This document shows positions 24,414 through 46,290 of a stretch of DNA of 64,000 nucleotides, piece after piece. The stretch is from assembly GCA_013287775.1 (NCBI GenBank), contig JABDDE010000002.1, positions 11,988 to 75,987 of the forward strand. Reading direction: 5' to 3'. Position 1 is the first letter of the stretch. Every line of letters begins with the position of its first letter. Position numbers and translations under genes: made by a program. The DNA comes from Chlamydiota bacterium. GTDB taxonomy: Bacteria; Chlamydiota; Chlamydiia; Chlamydiales; FEN-1388. The notes under the pieces were generated by a model. It had not been told where the DNA came from, did not search any database, and worked only from the letters and a program-made list of their open reading frames with translations.

Positions 24414-24496
24414 TATAGCATATTTGCTATAAAAAATGTCAAGTTTTATGCACCATAAGCATAAAAATGGGCAAAACCTATAGCATTTATGCTATA
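24414..24496. promoter_or_regulatory. two TATAGCA-N4-TGCTATA palindromes upstream of the HTH gene (operator candidates)
   Basis: Copies at 24414-24431 and 24479-24496. The first lies 21 nt upstream of the ATG at 24393. Confidence 0.4.
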
Positions 24497-24532
24497 AATG
24501 CCTCATACTTTTACGCCGTTATCTATACTAAT

Positions 24533-24639
24533 GGTGTCAATTTAAAGAAACTTGTAATCAATCAGAACCGAGCCATGGTAGTGGCGGAGTCCATTTACCT
24601 GATAGCATGATTTGTCATACGTTTCCTTAGGGTGACACC
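24533..24639. mobile_element. MITE-like element, 107-bp internal-deletion derivative retaining both ends
   Basis: Left end ggtgtcaatttaaagaaacttgtaatcaatcagaaccgagccatggtagtggcgg is joined to right-end modules ...gtttccttagggtgacacc. Confidence 0.7.
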
Positions 24640-25774: not shown

Positions 25775-25791
25775 GTCATGTGCAATTTTCC
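25775..25791. repeat. PAL-1 half-site (left arm only)
   Basis: gtcatgtgcaattttcc with no right arm. Confidence 0.7.
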
Positions 25792-25931
25792 GCCTCTTTT
25801 CCCATAGTTCCACCTTCACAAGAAGGGAAATAGAAGGACAAGTTTTATGCACCATAAGCATAAAAATGGGCAAAACCTATAGCTTTTATGCTATACATGC
25901 CTCATACTTCTACGCTGTTATCTATACTAAT

Positions 25932-26305
25932 GGTGTCAACTTAAAGAAACTTGTAACCAATCAGAACCGAGCCACGGTAGTGGCGGAAGCTCATTAGCCC
26001 CGCGTGACCGAGCAGCGTGCGCTTAGCGCACGCCGAGGGAACGTGGGGTCATGGAGCATAAATAAAAAACAGAGCTGCGGTAGCAGCGATACAGAAATGT
26101 ATCTGCACCAACGATACAACGCAAATGGGTTTCGCTGCTTCCGCAGCTCTATTTTTTAACCGCTGCCCAACCCCACGTTCCGCCGGCCGTAGCGCATGCG
26201 CTACGGCCGCGCTCCACGCGGGGCTAATGAATTCCACCGCTGCCGCGGTGGGGTCCATATCAACTAGAAGCATAATATGTTACACGTTTGCCTTAAGTTG
26301 ACACC
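25932..26305. mobile_element. MITE-like element, full 374-bp copy (long imperfect inverted duplication)
   Basis: Termini ggtgtcaacttaa / ttaagttgacacc. Both arms carry the same module order. No ORF with coding character. Confidence 0.75.
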
Positions 26306-33912: not shown

Positions 33913-34578
33913 ATGAAAAGATCACTAGGCATTGATACAGGACTTGCTATTTTACTCGAGAAGGCACCGGCAGAAGAGCTCGATTATGGGTTTGTAATGC
34001 ATTGCCTACAAGAATACCAAAATCCTCGAGTAAAACTACACCACCTCTTAAAAATCGAGGCCCTGATTCGCGTCAAAAAAGGGATATATATTTTTGGGAA
34101 ACGATTTGCAAGGGAGCCCTACTCGTCGGAAGTATTAGCAAACATGATTTATGGTCCATCCTATGTTTCCTTAGAATGGGCCTGTCAACATTATCGTTTG
34201 ATTCCTGAGAGAGTGACAACAGTAACCAGCATCACAACACAGCGCTCGCGGCGTTATCAGACACCTCTTGGCCTCTTTACCTATGACCATCTCCCACTCT
34301 CAGTGTATCCTGCAGGTGTGACAATGATGACCGTTTCTCATGGGCGTCATGCTTTAATTGCGACAAAAGAAAAAGCGCTTATTGATTTGTTAGTGGTACG
34401 TAGAGGTCGTTTTTCCTCGATGAAACATTTTCGTGAAACGGTATTTGAAGATCTGCGAATAGAGGAAGAGGATATAAAAAGTTTGGATCGCGAGTTATTG
34501 CAGGAAATATGTAGAGCACGGCAGTGCAGTGCAATACCTTTTGGAGCTGCATCAAAATGCATAATTCTATACACGTAA
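33913..34578 (+). CDS. AbiEi-type (type IV TA) antitoxin
   Basis: wHTH-like N-terminus ending LIRVKKGIYIF, then YGPSYVSLEWACQHYRLIPERV. Its stop overlaps an AbiEii-type start MHNSI. Confidence 0.65.
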   Translation: MKRSLGIDTGLAILLEKAPAEELDYGFVMHCLQEYQNPRVKLHHLLKIEALIRVKKGIYIFGKRFAREPYSSEVLANMIYGPSYVSLEWACQHYRLIPERVTTVTSITTQRSRRYQTPLGLFTYDHLPLSVYPAGVTMMTVSHGRHALIATKEKALIDLLVVRRGRFSSMKHFRETVFEDLRIEEEDIKSLDRELLQEICRARQCSAIPFGAASKCIILYT

Positions 34579-34622
34579 GCTCTTCGGAAATTCTGCAGGA
34601 AATTGCCCTTGTAGGGCCTTGA
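34557..34622 (+). pseudogene. AbiEii-type nucleotidyltransferase toxin, N-terminal stub 1
   Basis: MHNSIHVSSSEILQEIALVGP*, with only 21 codons left. Confidence 0.5.
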
Positions 34623-36715: not shown

Positions 36716-36820
36716 ATGCATAATTCTATTAAGCCAATGTTAGGGAGGTATGCATGCCGTTCGTTTCAAGAACACGAGCAAGCTCTTCGCGAAATTCTGC
36801 AGGAAATCGCTCTTGGATGA
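36716..36820 (+). pseudogene. AbiEii-type nucleotidyltransferase toxin, N-terminal stub 2
   Basis: MHNSIKPMLGRYACRSFQEHEQALREILQEIALG*. No NTase core follows. Confidence 0.55.
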
Positions 36821-41034: not shown

Positions 41035-41046
41035 AAAATAATAATG

Positions 41047-41172
41047 GGTGTCGCAGCTACCGCAGCTCTATTTTTTAACAATTCCAGTAACCCCACGTTC
41101 CCTCGGCTGCACGCATAGCGGCATCCTTCGGTCACATGGGGCTAGAACACAAATTTTGCCGCTACCGCGGCA
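41047..41172. mobile_element. MITE-like element, internal right-arm fragment
   Basis: gcagctaccgcagctctattttttaac...ccccacgttccctcgg...ggggctag...gccgctaccgcgg modules. Confidence 0.6.
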
Positions 41173-41327
41173 GGAGCGTATTTCCTAAAAACGTCTTTAC
41201 GCTTTAATGCATATATAGTATAATTGAATTAAAAGGAAGAGCTGCATGCAAAATTTGCTTTGGAGCCAAAGTTATCGAATTTTGGGCCAAATGGAATTTT
41301 GTAAGTAGCTCTGGAGGGAGAGATTAT

Positions 41328-41615
41328 ATGGCTACACATTCTCATTCACATTCTCATCAAGATTTTGCACGCATGACAATAGATTTTCCCGTTATGAAAC
41401 ATAAGCAACTAAAAGCAATTGCAGCGTTGCTTGGTATTCCCATGAAAGAATTTATATTATCATGTGTTCTCGAAAAATTAGAGAGTAAAGAAATAGTAAA
41501 ATCTCTTGAAGATCAAAGGGATATCGCAGCAGGTGAACGTGGCATAAAAAGCATTAGGGAACGTGGGTATGATACTTTAGAGGAAGTAAAGCGCTACTTA
41601 GGACTAGATGATTGA
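41328..41615 (+). CDS. RHH-type antitoxin (RelB/ParD-like)
   Basis: 95 aa with an ATGA overlap to the RelE-like gene. Confidence 0.65.
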   Translation: MATHSHSHSHQDFARMTIDFPVMKHKQLKAIAALLGIPMKEFILSCVLEKLESKEIVKSLEDQRDIAAGERGIKSIRERGYDTLEEVKRYLGLDD

Positions 41616-41872
41616 TGTATACGATTATTTTTGAGATAGATTTAAAGAAAACCCTAAAAAAAATTCCAAAGCAAGATGCTAAAAAAATTATTGACACTAT
41701 CGACACACTTGCCAATAACCCAAGACCAAGATGGGTAGAACAACTGAAAGGGCACATTGAAACACTATATAGAATAAGAGTGGGTAGCTATCGGGTTATT
41801 TATACGATAAATGACAATACACTAGTTGTGTGTGTCGTAGATGTCGATCATAGAAAAGACGTATACAGATAG
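41612..41872 (+). CDS. RelE/ParE family toxin
   Basis: 86 aa. KKIIDTIDTLANNPRP...LYRIRVGSYRVIYTINDNTLVVCVVDVDHRKDVY is the classic RelE/StbE pattern. Confidence 0.75.
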   Translation: MMYTIIFEIDLKKTLKKIPKQDAKKIIDTIDTLANNPRPRWVEQLKGHIETLYRIRVGSYRVIYTINDNTLVVCVVDVDHRKDVYR

Positions 41873-41959
41873 ATGGTTTAGTAGACGCTGGTATTGAAAA
41901 AATGCGTCATAATATGCCATTCAATGTAGCGTGAGCTATACAGGGGGGGGGGCTATTTA

Positions 41960-41998
41960 CGTCATGTGCCATTTTCCGCAGGAAAATGGCACATGACG
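41960..41998. repeat. PAL-1 palindrome (subtype B), perfect
   Basis: cgtcatgtgccattttcc-gca-ggaaaatggcacatgacg. Confidence 0.9.
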
Positions 41999-42078
41999 CT
42001 ACAACACCACACTCCCTTCTATCAAGCTGCGATAATATGTTGATCGTCTAAGTAATTCTTGGGCAGAGTATGCCTTAA
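41981..42078. repeat. direct repeat DR1: PAL-1 right arm plus pseudo-copy of the last ~25 codons of the ABC gene
   Basis: Aligns with 44453-44558 apart from an 8-bp gap and a few substitutions. Followed by a solo MITE terminus at 42072-42087. Confidence 0.8.
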
Positions 42079-42208
42079 GTTGACACCATCAAGGGCTATT
42101 ACTCATCCAAAAGGATGCAATAAAAATCGGAATGTGATATCTTTAAGATATGCAGGTTACATTCATGGAACGTGAACTTAATCTGCACGAATTAGGAGTT
42201 TAAAATTC

Positions 42209-42817
42209 ATGGATCATGAACATAAAATTCACAAAAGAAATATCGATATCACTGTCGTGGCATTAGAGCAAGCATTAGACATGTTAGGGCAGTTACTTGC
42301 CGATCGTGGAGAGTATCACGAAGTTGTAATTATTGGAGGTGGAGGGCTTCTGTTATTGAGGTATATCGAGCGCACGACTAAGGATCTTGATTTAATTGCG
42401 TTAGTTAAGGAAGGAAAATTGATTACACCGAATCCCTTACCTCATGGGTTATTGCAGGCAGTTGATGAGGTAGGTCGTGCTCTTGAATTAGGAAAAGAGT
42501 GGTTCAATACAGGCCCGGCTTCGTTACTAGATTTGGGGTTGCCGTCGGGGTTTGAAAAACGAATGCAAACGAGTCGTTATGGCAGCTTAATAGTGCATCT
42601 TGCTAGCCGATTTGACCAAATATGTTTTAAGCTGTATGCTGCGATAGATCAGGGGCCATATAGTAAACATTTTTCCGATCTTAAAGTATTATCCCCCACA
42701 CGAGAAGAATTAGTCACAGCAAAAGAATGGTGCATTACACAAGACGCATCCCAAGAGTTCGTTACAGAGCTTGATAAAGCAGTATATGCATTGGAGACAA
42801 CAGATGGGAGCTCTTAG
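42209..42817 (+). CDS. minimal nucleotidyltransferase-fold protein (AbiEii/MNT/DUF6036-like)
   Basis: IIGGGGLLLLRYIERTTKDLDLI fits the hG[GS]-x9-13-D-x-D NTase motif. 202 aa. Confidence 0.55.
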   Translation: MDHEHKIHKRNIDITVVALEQALDMLGQLLADRGEYHEVVIIGGGGLLLLRYIERTTKDLDLIALVKEGKLITPNPLPHGLLQAVDEVGRALELGKEWFNTGPASLLDLGLPSGFEKRMQTSRYGSLIVHLASRFDQICFKLYAAIDQGPYSKHFSDLKVLSPTREELVTAKEWCITQDASQEFVTELDKAVYALETTDGSS

Positions 42818-43706
42818 TGCGCAGCTAGAGGCATATTTACTCGATCTTTCATGGAGCTTGTGGACTGAATTAGGTGTGGCAGGCGTGAAACGACAGCATC
42901 AAGATTTTCTTATTGACCCTGAAGCGCTCATCTTGTTGACGTCAGCTATAATGGAAAGCGATCCTAGGCTTCGTGATGAGGCTCTGGATTGGTGTGTTCA
43001 TAATCATCATTTTATTTCTGTAAGTCGACTTCGTGTTCTTGTCAAAGCACTTGAATCGTATATTGCAATTCCCTTTTCAGTGTTTTCTGGAACAGTAAAC
43101 GCTGTTGCTGGTGTCCATTGGCCTACTTTCACATCAGTATCACCATTAGCATTCGTACCAAGCAATAAGTCTACGTCGCCAAAATTAAATATGCCAGCAT
43201 TGCTGTATTTTCGATTGCGTACTTTATTTGGTGTGAGTGCGCGTGCTGATGTGCTTGCATTTTTTTTATCAGAGGAAAAGACTGATTTTGCTGCAGCAGA
43301 TGTGGCCGAAATTGGGTATAGTAAGCGTAACCTCTTTGATATATTAGAAGGATTTTCAAAAACAGGATTGTTTAATAGAAAATCAATTCGAAATCAGCAG
43401 CGATATTCTTTAGAGAAGCGAGCTCAAATGGAAAAGATAGCAGGGCCCCTGCCGAAATATTTTTTGCCCTGGCGAGCCTTTTTGGAAGTGATATTGCCAC
43501 TGCGTGCGTGTATTAAAGCCACTGAAAATAAATCGTTGAGTACAAAGGTTGTGGAAATACGTAATCTGTTATTACAGTTAGAAAATAAGTTAGTAGTCTT
43601 GCGTTATGCTCCTCCGGTTATGCAAGCAGATATTCAAGTTTATTGGGAATCATTTAGTCAATGGTTCTTGGCGAGAATACAAGAGGTTGCCTGTCAAGGC
43701 ATATAA
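42804..43706 (+). CDS. hypothetical protein with probable winged-helix segment, partner of the NTase
   Basis: 14-nt overlap with the NTase gene. AADVAEIGYSKRNLFDILEGFSKTGLF resembles a wHTH. Confidence 0.5.
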   Translation: MGALSAQLEAYLLDLSWSLWTELGVAGVKRQHQDFLIDPEALILLTSAIMESDPRLRDEALDWCVHNHHFISVSRLRVLVKALESYIAIPFSVFSGTVNAVAGVHWPTFTSVSPLAFVPSNKSTSPKLNMPALLYFRLRTLFGVSARADVLAFFLSEEKTDFAAADVAEIGYSKRNLFDILEGFSKTGLFNRKSIRNQQRYSLEKRAQMEKIAGPLPKYFLPWRAFLEVILPLRACIKATENKSLSTKVVEIRNLLLQLENKLVVLRYAPPVMQADIQVYWESFSQWFLARIQEVACQGI

Positions 43707-43717
43707 AAACCTATTTT

Positions 43718-43756
43718 CGTCATATGCCATTTTCCGCAGGAAAATGGCATATGACG
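43718..43756. repeat. PAL-1 palindrome (subtype B), perfect
   Basis: cgtcatatgccattttcc-gca-ggaaaatggcatatgacg, between convergent stops at 43706 and 43763. Confidence 0.9.
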
Positions 43757-43762
43757 CAGGTT

Positions 43763-44449
43763 TTACATCTGTTGAATAAGCTCTGACACGAGGAGGGACA
43801 CTTTTGGTTCCGTTTCGTGTGCAATCCGAATGATTTCTGGGATATTCACAGGTTGTAATGAATCCGGATGGCAATTGTCCGTAATAATTGAAATTCCAAC
43901 GACTCTCATGCCCATATGTTTTGCGGCGAGGTTTTCTGGAACGGTTGACATGCCAATTGCATCAGCTCCAATGATATAGAGCATTCTATATTCTGCACGT
44001 GTCTCGAGTGCAGGGCCTTTAAGTGCCGCATACACGCCTTTTTGGACAGGGATGTTATTAGTGTATGCAATTTGCTCGAGTTTAGAAATGAGCTGCAGGT
44101 CATATGGCTCGAACATATCAGGCCATCTAGGACCTACTTTGGGATCATTACGACCAATGAGAGGACTGTCCGACAGTAAATTAATGTGATCATTGATGAT
44201 CATAATATCACCAGGCTGAAACGTTGGATTAATCCCACCAGCGATATTGGTTACTATTAATGTTTGTGCACCAAGAGCTTTCATAACCCGGATAGGGAAT
44301 GTTACCTGCTGTGGCGTATACCCTTCATACAGATGAAGCCTTCCTTCCATAGCTACAACGACTTTGCCTCTACACTTGCCCAATAGCAGCTTACCAGCAT
44401 GATGATCTGTAGTAGCTGAAGGAAAGCCGGGAATATCTTCATAATTCAG
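43763..44449 (-). pseudogene. purine nucleoside phosphorylase (PunA/XapA-type), 5'-truncated
   Basis: Homology ([20 protein letters not shown]...GRLHLYEGY...) runs up to a stop at 44450-44452 next to a PAL-1 half-site. About 30 N-terminal codons and any start are missing. Confidence 0.6.
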
Positions 44450-44452
44450 TTA

Positions 44453-44558
44453 GGAAAATGGCATATGACGCAACAACACTACAGTACCACACTCCCTTCT
44501 ATCAAGCTGCGATAGTACGCTGATCGTCTAAGTAATTCTTGGGCAGAGTATGCCTTAA
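44453..44558. repeat. direct repeat DR2: PAL-1 half-site (44453-44470) plus authentic 3' end of the ABC gene
   Basis: Partner of 41981-42078. Confidence 0.8.
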
Positions 44559-46290
44559 TTTGATGAGTGTCTGCAAGCTCAGATAAGTCGATGAGACCCG
44601 CCGCGCCTTCCACAGTTTTGAGTCTGTGGGCTATCACCAGAGTAATCGCCGAGCGCGCAAGCTGAGACATCATCTCCGTAATTTTTACTTCACTAATTTC
44701 ATCTAAGCTGCTAGTGGGTTCGTCAATCAAGAGAACAGATGGTTTATAATAGGTAGCACGCAAATACAGAGCGGCAAAATTGAGACGCTGGCGCTGGCCT
44801 CCTGAAAGATTCAACCCACCTTCACCGATTTTTGTTTGAAGGCCTTTATAGGTGCTCAGAACAGCAAAAAGACCAACGGCGTCTAAGATGGCAAGAAGCT
44901 CATCATCACTGTAAATAGGCTCTTCTGGCAAACCTTCTGGCAAGCCAAGGAGTAAATTGTCCTTCACAGTGCCCTTCACGTTCGTTGCTACTTGCCCTTG
45001 GAGCGCAATAAGCTGACGACGCACAGCATCACTGGTTTGATATATGTCAATATTGTCAATAACAACACTGCCACTAATAGGCTTGAGTTGCCCACCTAAA
45101 ATAGAGAGAAAAGTGGTTTTGCCAACGCCTGAAGGGCCTATAATGCCGTACAGTTTATTTGGCTGCTCCTGAGCAGCGGTCATCGCAAATGAATGATTGT
45201 TATAGAGCACTGCGCCGCCGTAGTCAAAGTGAATATTTTCAGCGCTTATGGTGATGGGATCTGTTTTAACTACTTGTGGTTGACTATCGCCAAAAACGGG
45301 GATTTGCTGTTTTCCAAACGCAGGGATAAAGGCAAAAAGATCATGGATGGCTGCCAGGCTTCGCATCGTTTTTCTAAAAAGCTTCATGGTTACTACAAGC
45401 ATTTTAGTGCCTTGCATGTAGGATAAAAATAATCCAATAGCAGACGCTGTTGTGGCAAGCGAATGATTTACTTGCCAGACGAGAAATACAGCCAAGATAA
45501 ACAACGAGGCCAAATGGAGCAAAGCAAGGAAATGGAAGGTTGCAGAATAGGAGAGCCATAGCGCCCCTTCGGTGTATACATTTGAAAGCACATTATTCTT
45601 AAGGCGCTGACTTCTAAAGTCGGCTGCAAAGGTAGATCGAATAAGCTGTATTTGTGCAAGATTCTCCACTGCAGTGGTCTTACACGCATCATCGGATTTG
45701 AGGAAATCTTTTTCGAAAGAAGCAGAGATACGAGTTGTGAAATAATACCCTATGCTTATGATAGATATAATAAACAGGGCCATGATTGCCGCTATGGTGT
45801 ATGAATAGTACACTACCATGATGATGACGGTGATGAGGCTGAAAATAAGAGGAGTAAAGTCGTCAGTAATCTGGTCGAGAAGATCTTCGCAGCCACGCGC
45901 TCCACGATCTATTTTGCCAAGGATAGCGCCACTTGATCGATGCACGTGGTATTGTGGGTCAACGGATAATAAATGCAGGTGCGCTGCCTGATAAATGCTA
46001 TAGATGCACTGCAGCTGGAATTTGGGATTTTGTTGGCGTGCCAGTTTTTGAAGTATGTCGAGGATAAACCAAATGCCGAAAATCACAAAGCACATATACA
46101 TGCCATGTGACTCAAAAATGAGCGCCGCCAAAAAAGGTGTTATTGTCGTAAACACTTGATATATGGCCGTCATGGCCAAAATGCAAAAGCAGGTGCCTTT
46201 CTGATAGGCAATCAACTGCCACCAGGGCTTCGTAAAGTCAATTGGAAAGATAGTTGGATTTTTTATCTTTTTAAATTTCATAAACTGCAA
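44479..46290 (-). CDS. ABC transporter, fused permease/ATP-binding protein (exporter type)
   Basis: Walker A GPSGVGKTT, signature LSGGQRQR, Walker B LLIDEPTS, and six N-terminal TM helices. Confidence 0.85.
   Translation of the reverse strand: MQFMKFKKIKNPTIFPIDFTKPWWQLIAYQKGTCFCILAMTAIYQVFTTITPFLAALIFESHGMYMCFVIFGIWFILDILQKLARQQNPKFQLQCIYSIYQAAHLHLLSVDPQYHVHRSSGAILGKIDRGARGCEDLLDQITDDFTPLIFSLITVIIMVVYYSYTIAAIMALFIISIISIGYYFTTRISASFEKDFLKSDDACKTTAVENLAQIQLIRSTFAADFRSQRLKNNVLSNVYTEGALWLSYSATFHFLALLHLASLFILAVFLVWQVNHSLATTASAIGLFLSYMQGTKMLVVTMKLFRKTMRSLAAIHDLFAFIPAFGKQQIPVFGDSQPQVVKTDPITISAENIHFDYGGAVLYNNHSFAMTAAQEQPNKLYGIIGPSGVGKTTFLSILGGQLKPISGSVVIDNIDIYQTSDAVRRQLIALQGQVATNVKGTVKDNLLLGLPEGLPEEPIYSDDELLAILDAVGLFAVLSTYKGLQTKIGEGGLNLSGGQRQRLNFAALYLRATYYKPSVLLIDEPTSSLDEISEVKITEMMSQLARSAITLVIAHRLKTVEGAAGLIDLSELADTHQIKAYSAQELLRRSAYYRSLIEGSVVL

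Follow-up and report, generated by a model that had tools for sequence, protein, structure and literature searches.

The last 25 codons of an ABC exporter gene in an uncultured chlamydia-like bacterium occur twice, on either side of a 2.4-kb stretch of DNA, and the locus that holds them is best explained as a scar that illegitimate recombination left, in two events or more, on an accessory stretch dense with repeats; it is not a transposon target-site duplication. Very probably the direct repeat is owed to illegitimate recombination and not to transposition, since it is unique and highly significant, since one junction (J1) lies on bases shared by both parents, and since half copies of the PAL-1 hairpin found at its edge are rare and the nearby purine nucleoside phosphorylase (PNP) gene lacks 65–70 codons that are absent from the assembly. 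An earlier, sequence-only reading had seen here the footprint of an insertion or of illegitimate recombination mediated by two repeat families. Illegitimate recombination stands, as do junctions on both families, but the block around a nucleotidyltransferase (NTase) gene does not stand as the inserted unit: it is more likely that a piece of ~0.87 kb, carrying parDE, PAL-1 and the ABC tail, was relocated.

The window, as the whole 64-kb stretch of DNA analysed is called below, belongs to a metagenome-assembled, repeat-rich genome of 2.17 Mb in 128 contigs (73% complete, 44% GC). Tandem paralogues are common in the window.

The Direct Repeat

41981..42078, minus strand: left direct-repeat copy, in which a PAL-1 right arm is followed by a stop codon and by the final 25 ABC codons as a pseudo-copy
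44453..44558, minus strand: right direct-repeat copy, in which a PAL-1 right arm and an 8-nt spacer are followed by the 3′ end of the intact ABC gene (stop and final 25 codons)
44479..46290, minus strand: ABC exporter (fused permease/ATPase, 600–603 aa) with an intact C-terminus

The two copies had been described as matching but for an 8-bp gap and a few substitutions, and as consisting of the PAL-1 right arm and about 25 ABC codons. Repeat search and pairwise alignment bear this out: the copies, 98 and 106 nt long, differ by six substitutions and one 8-bp indel, that is, by 6% plus the indel. In the left copy, the PAL-1 right arm (41981–41998) directly adjoins the stop codon (CTA on the plus strand, 41999–42001), and 25 codons follow, to ...ATGCCTTAA at 42078. 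In the right copy, the arm (44453–44470) is followed by the 8-nt spacer CAACAACA and the stop (44479–44481), and the same 25 codons run to 44558. One substitution falls in the arm, the indel in the non-coding spacer, and five transitions in the coding part; the longest identical stretch is about 41 nt. Both copies encode ...SLIEGSVVL*, the sole amino-acid change being A to T, and the remaining four changes in the coding part are synonymous (P about 0.06 when only transitions are considered, 0.014 with all substitution types).

When the left copy was compared by BLAST with the whole assembly, its gene-tail part matched the right copy only (78 nt, 94.9%, E 2e-29), and no remnant of a second ABC gene was found besides this tail. 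The right copy, already read as the functional end of the gene, is indeed that: the exporter, identified with Pfam and NCBIfam, keeps its C-terminus intact when set against full-length homologues of up to 68% identity. A target-site duplication would be short, of fixed length and identical, which repeats of 98 and 106 nt that have diverged are not.

Genes of the Locus

41328..41872, plus strand: parD (41328–41615) and parE (41612–41872), a toxin-antitoxin pair (Pfam)
42117..43706, plus strand: NTase + partner cassette, with a DUF6036 nucleotidyltransferase (42209–42817) and a 300-aa partner (42804–43706)
43763..44449, minus strand: PNP′, a purine nucleoside phosphorylase fragment without about 65–70 N-terminal codons

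The toxin-antitoxin pair upstream of the left copy, first called relBE, scores in Pfam as ParD (3.5e-7, 31 bits, cut-off 27.3) and ParE_toxin (1.8e-13, 51.3 bits, cut-off 23). The two genes overlap by 4 nt, as a type II ParDE module does, and have paralogues at 55–60% on contig C49. At 35–38% GC against 44% for the genome, they are AT-rich and form the compositional outlier of the locus.

Between the repeats lie, as reported, the NTase pair, a PAL-1 copy and the 5′-truncated PNP gene. They do not make up a single accessory block, however. A second copy of the NTase pair (G000:C39:17567-19148, 85.3% identity over 1590 nt) sets the borders of the unit at 42117 and 43706, from 92 nt before the NTase ATG to the stop of the partner, and shares no MITE end, PAL-1 or PNP with this locus. 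At 1.59 kb, the NTase + wHTH pair forms a cassette apart, with borders that differ from those of the direct repeat. Its description as recently mobile cargo is not supported in the point of recency, because the repeat copies are 6% diverged and carry an indel.

The NTase belongs to DUF6036 (26.5 bits), a family on which no literature was found. Its partner matches no Pfam, NCBIfam or PADLOC family, and a PDB profile search gives it a weak central ArsR-type wHTH (E 6e-4). NTase homologues were found at 75 loci over Chlamydiota, Verrucomicrobiota, Actinomycetota, Myxococcota and others, with the partner following the NTase in 72; the other three records break off or have no detectable partner. 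PNP, ABC or parD is a neighbour at none of the 75 loci, a distant parE-like match lying several kb off in two, and no NTase homologue was found in the plasmid collection. As an overlapping two-gene NTase + wHTH unit, patchy across phyla and with two copies in the genome, the pair resembles the nucleotidyltransferase toxin-antitoxin systems of the AbiE and MNT types, AbiE being of type IV. Unlike in AbiE, the NTase comes first and stays below the AbiEii (DUF1814) cut-off (19.9 bits against 22.5; PADLOC AbiEii E 0.009), and the partner has no AbiEi match.

On the other side of the cassette, the PNP frame had been seen to be cut at a PAL-1 half-site, and it does stop at half a PAL-1. Taken as a trimeric-type purine nucleoside phosphorylase (PNP-I), PNP′ scores 307 bits with NCBIfam NF006054 over profile positions 48–273 of 274, short of full length. 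Alignment shows the ~65–70 missing N-terminal residues to be present in three full-length homologues, so that the signal peptide and the first conserved block are lost. A tblastn search with three N-termini for this missing 5′ part, which the earlier reading had called for, found it nowhere in the assembly. PNP′ is thus a gene fragment, a 5′-truncated relic.

Repeat Families and Junctions

41960..41998, no strand: left copy of the full PAL-1 hairpin (18+3+18 nt), after a CTATTTA leader and a G10 run (41942–41951)
43718..43756, no strand: full PAL-1 hairpin, middle copy, between the partner stop and the PNP stop
41043..41201, plus strand: M_L, one foldback-MITE arm, its centre-side end AATGGGTGTCGCAGC... 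running outward, without the outer terminus
41202..41207, no strand: J0 (CTTTAA), junction of the MITE arm with the parDE segment
41237..41313, no strand: small palindromic repeat, a third repeat family, just upstream of parD
42071..42078, no strand: J1, TGCCTTAA, bases common to the ABC tail and the inner MITE terminal repeat
42079..42089, plus strand: M_R, orphan outer MITE terminus GTTGACACCAT
44447..44452, no strand: J2 (CAGTTA), PNP frame joined to the PAL-1 loop

PAL-1 is a hairpin with about 220 copies in 2.17 Mb. The window holds 16 arm matches against 0.02 expected, its copies there all lie between genes, and as single-stranded DNA it folds at -20 to -22 kcal/mol (z about -10). Of 41 genomes searched, no other yielded PAL-1, so that the duplication should postdate the spread of PAL-1 through the lineage. 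True half copies are rare (about 3–4 of roughly 220). One of them forms J2 (C2:56440), where the left arm is absent and no hairpin forms; a second in the window, at 25775, is likewise close to a duplicated segment, ~40 nt from its edge.

The GTTGACACC element is a foldback MITE: multi-copy, non-coding and with terminal inverted repeats, as in the full 374-bp example at 25932–26305. A nhmmer profile built from 45 arms gave 289 hits, with 87 arms reaching the GTTGACACCAT terminus; of 191 left-complete arms, 104 are without the GTTGACACC end and belong to other subfamilies. M_L matches model positions 3–162 of 175 (82.7 bits), in agreement with pairwise alignments, and its last ~35 nt are poorly conserved. 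M_R supplies positions 162–172, the last 10–11 model positions missing from M_L, in the same orientation and 0.87 kb downstream. Joined, the two score 94.9 bits over positions 3–172 and make an arm of 176 nt, which is a normal length. The outer terminus occurs 73 times as an exact 9-mer; genome-wide, no exact orphan terminus other than M_R follows a TTAA. That M_L and M_R are unrelated and complement each other by coincidence is highly improbable.

All three junctions lie on dispersed repeats. At J0, the match to the arm profile stops at 41201, beyond which lies unique sequence containing a TATAAT-like box; the junction is placed to within about 6 nt. At J1, the break of the left copy into a solo MITE terminus, noticed at the outset, is confirmed at 42078/42079: the copy runs into GTTGACACCAT exactly where the match to the real ABC gene stops. 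Here TGCCTTAA is native ABC coding sequence (I-K-A), conserved in the 68% homologue, and type-B MITE arms have it as their inner terminal repeat. The few bases common to both parents at the breakpoint thus number from 4 (TTAA, type-A arms) to 8 (TGCCTTAA, type-B arms); J1 is the one junction of the three at which microhomology was scored. The two halves of the third family, at 41237–41313, are by eye inverted copies of one another, and both recur on C106, C29, C55, C75 and C80. Rfam gave zero family matches over 40.5–46.5 kb.

Proposed Course of Events

What, then, was moved, and where to? The locus may have started with a MITE arm, the NTase + wHTH cassette, a PAL-1 and an intact PNP gene, followed further on by parDE, another PAL-1 and the end of the ABC gene. 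In a first step, a ~0.87-kb segment of parDE, PAL-1 and the last 25 ABC codons would have been copied to a point some 10 nt short of the outer end of the MITE arm, yielding J0 and J1 at once. For J1, the TTAA/TGCCTTAA that the ABC tail has in common with the MITE terminal repeat would have been used. Either template switching during replication or break repair on short homologies could be the route, and the same product would result if a tandem duplication had lost its redundant half. In a second step, a deletion would have taken away parDE and the left PAL-1 arm at their original place together with the 5′ end of PNP, and would have had its right end at the hairpin loop (J2).

This direction of events, a copy of parDE, PAL-1 and ABC tail placed into a MITE arm with a deletion afterwards, is our tentative preference. 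The segment is the likelier intruder because the orphan at 42079–42089 completes the arm at 41043–41201, and joining them lifts the score from 82.7 to 94.9 bits. It is also favoured because the genome has no other such orphan terminus, because parDE is the compositional outlier and because the borders of the cassette differ from those of the block. On the other side, two or three events are needed, against one in the sequence-only reading; the end of M_L is poorly conserved, and 104 of 191 arms have no GTTGACACC; and the four synonymous differences of five hint that the left tail once stood in a working gene, which is not expected of a stub that never functioned.

Two wider patterns were also considered and dropped. 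Of a general process of insertion flanked by ~100-bp duplication there was little trace: about 30 low-copy local repeats came up, and the four inspected proved to be a different sort of intergenic repeat. Nor did a search for MITE termini holding other cargo turn up any further orphan terminus.

Alternative Explanations

If the ancestral order was parDE, PAL-1 and ABC, a 2.4-kb piece consisting of a MITE end, the NTase cassette, PAL-1 and the truncated PNP could instead have been inserted between the hairpin loop and TGCCTTAA, ~100 bp being duplicated between staggered breaks. A single event would then make J1 and J2 together, and the NTase pair is mobile in a wide sense of the word, with its two copies in the genome and 75 scattered loci. 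Such an insertion is nevertheless unlikely. It does not explain why a correctly oriented MITE arm without terminus lies 0.87 kb upstream of an orphan terminus, and the piece is not the cassette, given that the cassette borders fall inside it and that, beyond the cassette, it brings in a dead PNP fragment with another PAL-1. A target duplication of ~100 bp is in itself unusual, and the copies have diverged by 6%.

The synonymous bias would fit two copies that both worked for a time, as expected if the whole ABC gene with PAL-1 (and parDE) was segmentally duplicated and then worn down by deletions, one from TGCCTTAA of the left ABC gene to the MITE terminal repeat, leaving a 25-codon stub, and another from PNP to the PAL-1 loop. 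Each junction would then need no more than a deletion between short homologies, and no event is commoner in intracellular genomes that are shrinking; tandem paralogues are, besides, frequent in the window. Yet the complementarity of M_L and M_R finds no explanation here, no further remnant of a second ABC gene exists, and the statistic behind the synonymous bias is weak; we consider this history slightly less likely than the insertion.

More improbable again is gene transfer, in which a parDE, PAL-1 and ABC end of a different strain or lineage with that gene order became joined to the MITE arm by illegitimate recombination; the differences between the copies would then be allelic. The AT-richness of parDE against its surroundings, the bias of the differences to synonymous changes and the split look of the MITE arm would suit it. 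It requires, however, a chance landing 2.4 kb from the resident ABC end, and with PAL-1 confined to this genome of 41 the donor must be a very close, unsampled relative, absent from the collections searched.

Least probable of all is a chimeric contig joining strain variants or repeat copies, an artefact that a 128-contig, 73%-complete, repeat-filled assembly might invite, as the two copies differ and are neither a collapsed nor a duplicated single sequence, their longest identical stretch is about 41 nt, J2 has no repeat on its PNP side, neither junction has a k-mer path, and the 8–9 nt shared by the J1 partners are probably too short an overlap for the assembler to have made J1.

An empty site was also sought in related genomes. 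In 40 relatives, no ABC homologue exceeds 27% identity, and the best in any collection searched (68% identity) occurs in two different gene neighbourhoods with unshared flanks. Among the 40 relatives, the ROK-ankyrin gene of the neighbourhood was found in one, the flavodoxin-like gene in four and PNP in three, never in a shared context. A metagenome scan gave no close match and exact-protein look-ups gave none; a close relative is absent from every collection searched.

Comparison with Known Systems

Microhomology-mediated illegitimate recombination and template-switch rearrangement in bacteria leave scars of duplication followed by deletion. The locus shares with them a J1 on 4–8 common bases, the use of local material, a duplicated segment next to a truncated gene, and the lack of a recombinase site; it departs from the usual case in that the junction partners are lineage-specific repeats, namely a MITE terminal repeat and a hairpin loop.

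Breakage at the centre of a palindrome, or cleavage of a hairpin tip, is known for instance from SbcCD acting on long palindromes in E. coli. J2 looks similar, keeping one arm and the loop of a perfect 18-bp stem while unrelated DNA takes the place of the other arm exactly at the loop. PAL-1 is short by comparison (39 nt), and neither SbcD nor Ku, for hairpin cleavage and end joining, was found in the 73%-complete assembly. Replication slippage at the PAL-1 hairpin would account for J2 equally well.

Like an IS or transposon insertion, the locus has direct repeats flanking an accessory gene block. The repeats are however ~100 bp long and diverged instead of a few identical bases, and 42079–44452 has neither terminal inverted repeats of its own nor a transposase ORF, ending in an 11-nt MITE terminus on one side and in a broken PNP on the other. 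Homology-facilitated illegitimate recombination in natural transformation is expected to replace the DNA between anchor and joint. A homologous stretch (PAL-1 and the ABC end) and a short-homology joint a few kb away are present here too, but the intervening DNA is kept and the anchor duplicated.

PAL-1 itself is comparable to REP/REPIN sequences: it is a short hairpin whose many copies occur in a single lineage only, and the genome has two Y1_Tnp genes (98 and 96 bits). Each of these has one PAL-1-like hairpin 430–710 nt downstream and a MITE arm just upstream, the link of the MITE to the Y1 genes being one of position. In REP/RAYT systems (REPtrons), the Y1 gene lies between inverted repeats, whereas no second PAL-1, and so no PAL-1 on both sides, was seen within 1.2 kb of either gene. 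Known Y1 (HUH) enzymes cut beside the foot of a hairpin and not in its loop, where J2 lies, and this analysis gave no evidence for the Y1 proteins as makers of J0, J1 or J2.

Implications

Ordinary in kind, the scar raises no new question alone; the repeat families and their possible Y1 link are of more interest. That PAL-1, the foldback MITE and the two Y1/HUH transposases actively capture and relocate small cassettes with flanking chromosome, here parDE, PAL-1 and 78 nt of ABC, is very improbable on present evidence. Were it true, an obligate intracellular bacterium would have a REPtron-like system by which cassettes for toxin-antitoxin pairs and defence are shuffled. No literature specific to MITEs in Chlamydiae was found.

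The scar does illustrate how a toxin-antitoxin-rich accessory region of an environmental chlamydial genome gets remodelled, with breakpoints that coincide with two lineage-specific repeat families and a PNP gene destroyed along the way. For annotation, 41999–42078 is to be treated as a gene-tail relic, 43763–44449 as a pseudogene, and the NTase + wHTH pair as a cassette that has borders of its own and occurs a second time in the genome.

Two Copies of One Gene End

The 3′-end of the ABC exporter gene occurs twice in the window, as direct repeats that each comprise the right arm of a PAL-1 hairpin, the ABC stop codon and the last 25 codons. The surrounding stretch is made up as follows:

41043-41201, left piece of an arm of a foldback MITE
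41328-41872, parDE toxin-antitoxin pair
41981-42078, left copy of the repeat
42079-42089, orphan MITE terminus
42117-43706, cassette of a nucleotidyltransferase (NTase) gene and its partner
43763-44449, minus strand, 5′-truncated purine nucleoside phosphorylase gene (PNP′)
44453-44558, right copy of the repeat
44479-46290, minus strand, ABC exporter gene

Three junctions join these pieces: J0, between the MITE arm and the parDE segment; J1, between the ABC tail copy and the orphan MITE terminus; and J2, between the PNP frame and the loop of a PAL-1.

A repeat search returned an ungapped pair at 41996-42083 and 44476-44563 (92%) and a second one at 41980-42016 and 44452-44488, and in a gapped pairwise alignment both merge into one alignment with a single 8-bp gap. 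The two copies thus lie exactly where the sequence-only reading had placed them, and the gap and few substitutions it had described are borne out, the PAL-1 arm having one substitution and the 25 codons five. On the minus strand, each copy terminates in ...SLIEGSVVL and a TAG codon; the PAL-1 arm directly abuts this stop codon in the left copy, while in the right one an 8-nt spacer, CAACAACA, separates them. The window spans 11988-75987 of contig C2 in an assembly of 2.17 Mb (128 contigs, 73% complete, 44% GC), the sole representative of its genus among the genomes compared. Across this assembly, the ABC-tail portion of the left copy has a single match, its counterpart in the right copy (alignment of 78 nt at 94.9% identity, E 2e-29). 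All five codon substitutions are transitions, and four are synonymous. Random substitution would give at least four synonymous changes with P ~0.06 (transitions only) or 0.014 (all substitution types), and this bias is a hint rather than a result.

The Repeat Families

PAL-1 is a perfect 18+3+18-nt hairpin, folding as single-stranded DNA at -20 to -22 kcal/mol (z ~ -10). The window contains 16 occurrences of its arm where 0.02 would be expected, and a census of the assembly counts about 220 hairpins; by a strict pattern there are 24 in this genome and 0 in 40 relatives. True half copies are rare: one at J2, one at window 25775, and one or two more. The half copy at 25775-25792 retains the left arm and loop, its right arm being replaced, and is followed after ~40 nt by one copy of a 154-nt duplication (24435-24588 and 25834-25987), beside MITE ends. 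Between parE and the left PAL-1 is a run of ten G (41942-41951), which may be either a tract prone to slippage or an artefact of the sequencing chemistry. Immediately 5′ of parD, a ~77-nt palindromic element (41237-41313) that covers the likely ribosome-binding site represents a third family of small repeats; copies of its halves are present on five or more other contigs.

The MITE family named in the sequence-only reading is real. Its arms, of 170-190 nt and terminating in ...TTAAGTTGACACCAT, are the halves of a 374-bp full foldback at 25932-26305. A profile built from 45 arms has 289 matches in the genome, 87 of them extending to the TTAAGTTGACACCAT terminus; this terminus is missing from 104 of the 191 left-complete arms, because these carry other right-hand modules. 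Two mutually very similar IS200/RAYT-like Y1 transposase genes (contig C5, 34581-34913; contig C49, 7713-8045) are each preceded by a MITE-family arm, whose end lies no more than ~60 nt away, and followed at 430-710 nt by a PAL-1-like hairpin; the C49 gene also has parDE and ABC paralogues nearby. These enzymes may be behind one or both repeat families.

The Three Junctions

At J1, the homology of the two copies stops at ATGCCTTAA, beyond which the right copy continues as ABC coding sequence and the left one as GTTGACACCAT, followed by unique DNA. The motif TGCCTTAA is native ABC coding sequence (I-K-A), kept in a 68% homologue, and at the same time forms the inner section of the terminal repeat in type-B MITE arms; type-A arms share TTAA only. 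This makes J1 a joint with 4-8 bp of short homology. No other orphan MITE terminus preceded by TTAA was found in the genome.

The probable counterpart of this terminus lies at J0. Upstream of parDE, 41043-41201 matches positions 3-162 of the 175 in the MITE arm profile, its last ~35 nt being weakly conserved, while the orphan terminus fills positions 162-172; once joined, the two make a normal 176-nt arm and score 94.9 bits, compared with 82.7 for the left piece alone. A caveat is the weak conservation of those ~35 nt, together with the 104 left-complete arms that have other right-hand modules; the probability that an unrelated arm would end at this point, correctly oriented and less than 1 kb away, is estimated at 0.4-3.5%.

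At J2, the PNP frame extends to about 44449 and is followed by TTA and the PAL-1 right arm; the left arm is absent, and no hairpin can form. The truncation of PNP′ had been correctly recognized: it matches NCBIfam NF006054 at profile positions 48-273 and, compared with three full-length homologues, is without about 65-70 N-terminal residues including the signal peptide. A tblastn search of the 73% complete assembly did not find the missing N-terminus. A PNP of this type is present in 3 of 40 relatives. Full-length homologues from two related chlamydiae (L098, G010:C628; L099, G031:C23) have apparent signal-peptide starts, MKKLLSLLLLSV... and MKNYFIVILSLLG..., which suggests that this is an exported purine nucleoside phosphorylase.

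The Nucleotidyltransferase Cassette

The NTase (202 aa) is a DUF6036 nucleotidyltransferase; as an AbiEii protein it scores below the family threshold. Its partner (300 aa), whose gene overlaps that of the NTase by 14 nt, has no family match in profile searches, and a profile of 19 homologues gives a weak match to ArsR-type wHTH proteins (residues ~149-238, E 6e-4). Chlamydiota and several further phyla together have 75 loci of this kind, the NTase coming first; the partner follows it in 72 of them, while the remaining three records end early or show no recognizable partner. PNP, ABC or parD is a neighbour at none of these loci; two carry a parE-like match, but only at a distance of several kb.

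A second cassette copy lies 270 nt short of the end of contig C39 (17567-19148). It has 85.3% nucleotide identity over the 1590 nt of window 42117-43706, a span that begins 92 nt before the NTase start codon and runs to the stop of the partner, and no similarity outside. Its partner gene is intact, but a frameshift or sequencing error divides its NTase between two frames. Since the similarity is limited to this span, the cassette is bounded separately within the 2.4-kb block (42079-44452), which is demonstrably composite rather than the one inserted unit that had been proposed.

Origin of the Scar

All three junctions lie on repeats, one with short homology and one at a hairpin tip, so illegitimate recombination fits, as the sequence-only reading had supposed. 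Transposition does not: it requires duplications that are short and identical, element ends and a transposase. We favour a direction in which the parDE segment entered the MITE arm over an insertion of the NTase block. The segment "parDE + PAL-1 + ABC tail" would have been copied into a MITE arm already upstream of the cassette, J0 and J1 arising at one break; a subsequent deletion from PNP to the PAL-1 loop would have removed the original parDE and the PNP 5′-end, making J2. The same product would result from one event of template switching that jumped three times, or from two deletions after a tandem duplication. A one-event insertion of the NTase block is less likely: it turns the complementary MITE pieces into a coincidence and takes a composite stretch as a unit. 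The left copy might instead be the remnant of a whole-gene ABC duplication that later decayed, or a foreign allele, either of which would better account for the synonymous bias. An assembly artefact is, on internal evidence, unlikely: the copies differ in sequence and the sequences joined at J1 have only 8-9 nt in common. Neither SbcD nor Ku was found in the 73% complete assembly.

Among the 41 genomes searched, PAL-1 was found in this one alone, and since the duplicated segment includes one of its arms, the event is younger than the spread of PAL-1 in the lineage. With copies 6% divergent it is not demonstrably recent, which leaves the recent mobility claimed for the NTase pair unsupported.

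Among the 40 nearest genomes there is no ABC homologue above 27% identity. The best anywhere are 68% identical and lie in two differing neighbourhoods, beside an SDR-like gene in the one case and within a type III secretion cluster in the other. A 67% homologue on JGI metagenome contigs of another chlamydial lineage (L104-L106) is likewise part of a type III secretion cluster and adjoins CdsD and the T3SS ATPase, a setting unlike that in the window. The genes flanking the stretch are as patchy in distribution as ABC, and the whole stretch is accessory DNA.

The scar is of an ordinary kind; its host is an unusual, repeat-laden chlamydial genome. Another duplicated gene end surrounds an insert in the window: at 34557-34622 and 36716-36820, stubs derived from the start of an AbiEii-type gene (its 5′-end) lie on either side of about 2.1 kb, the former being a shortened version of the latter.
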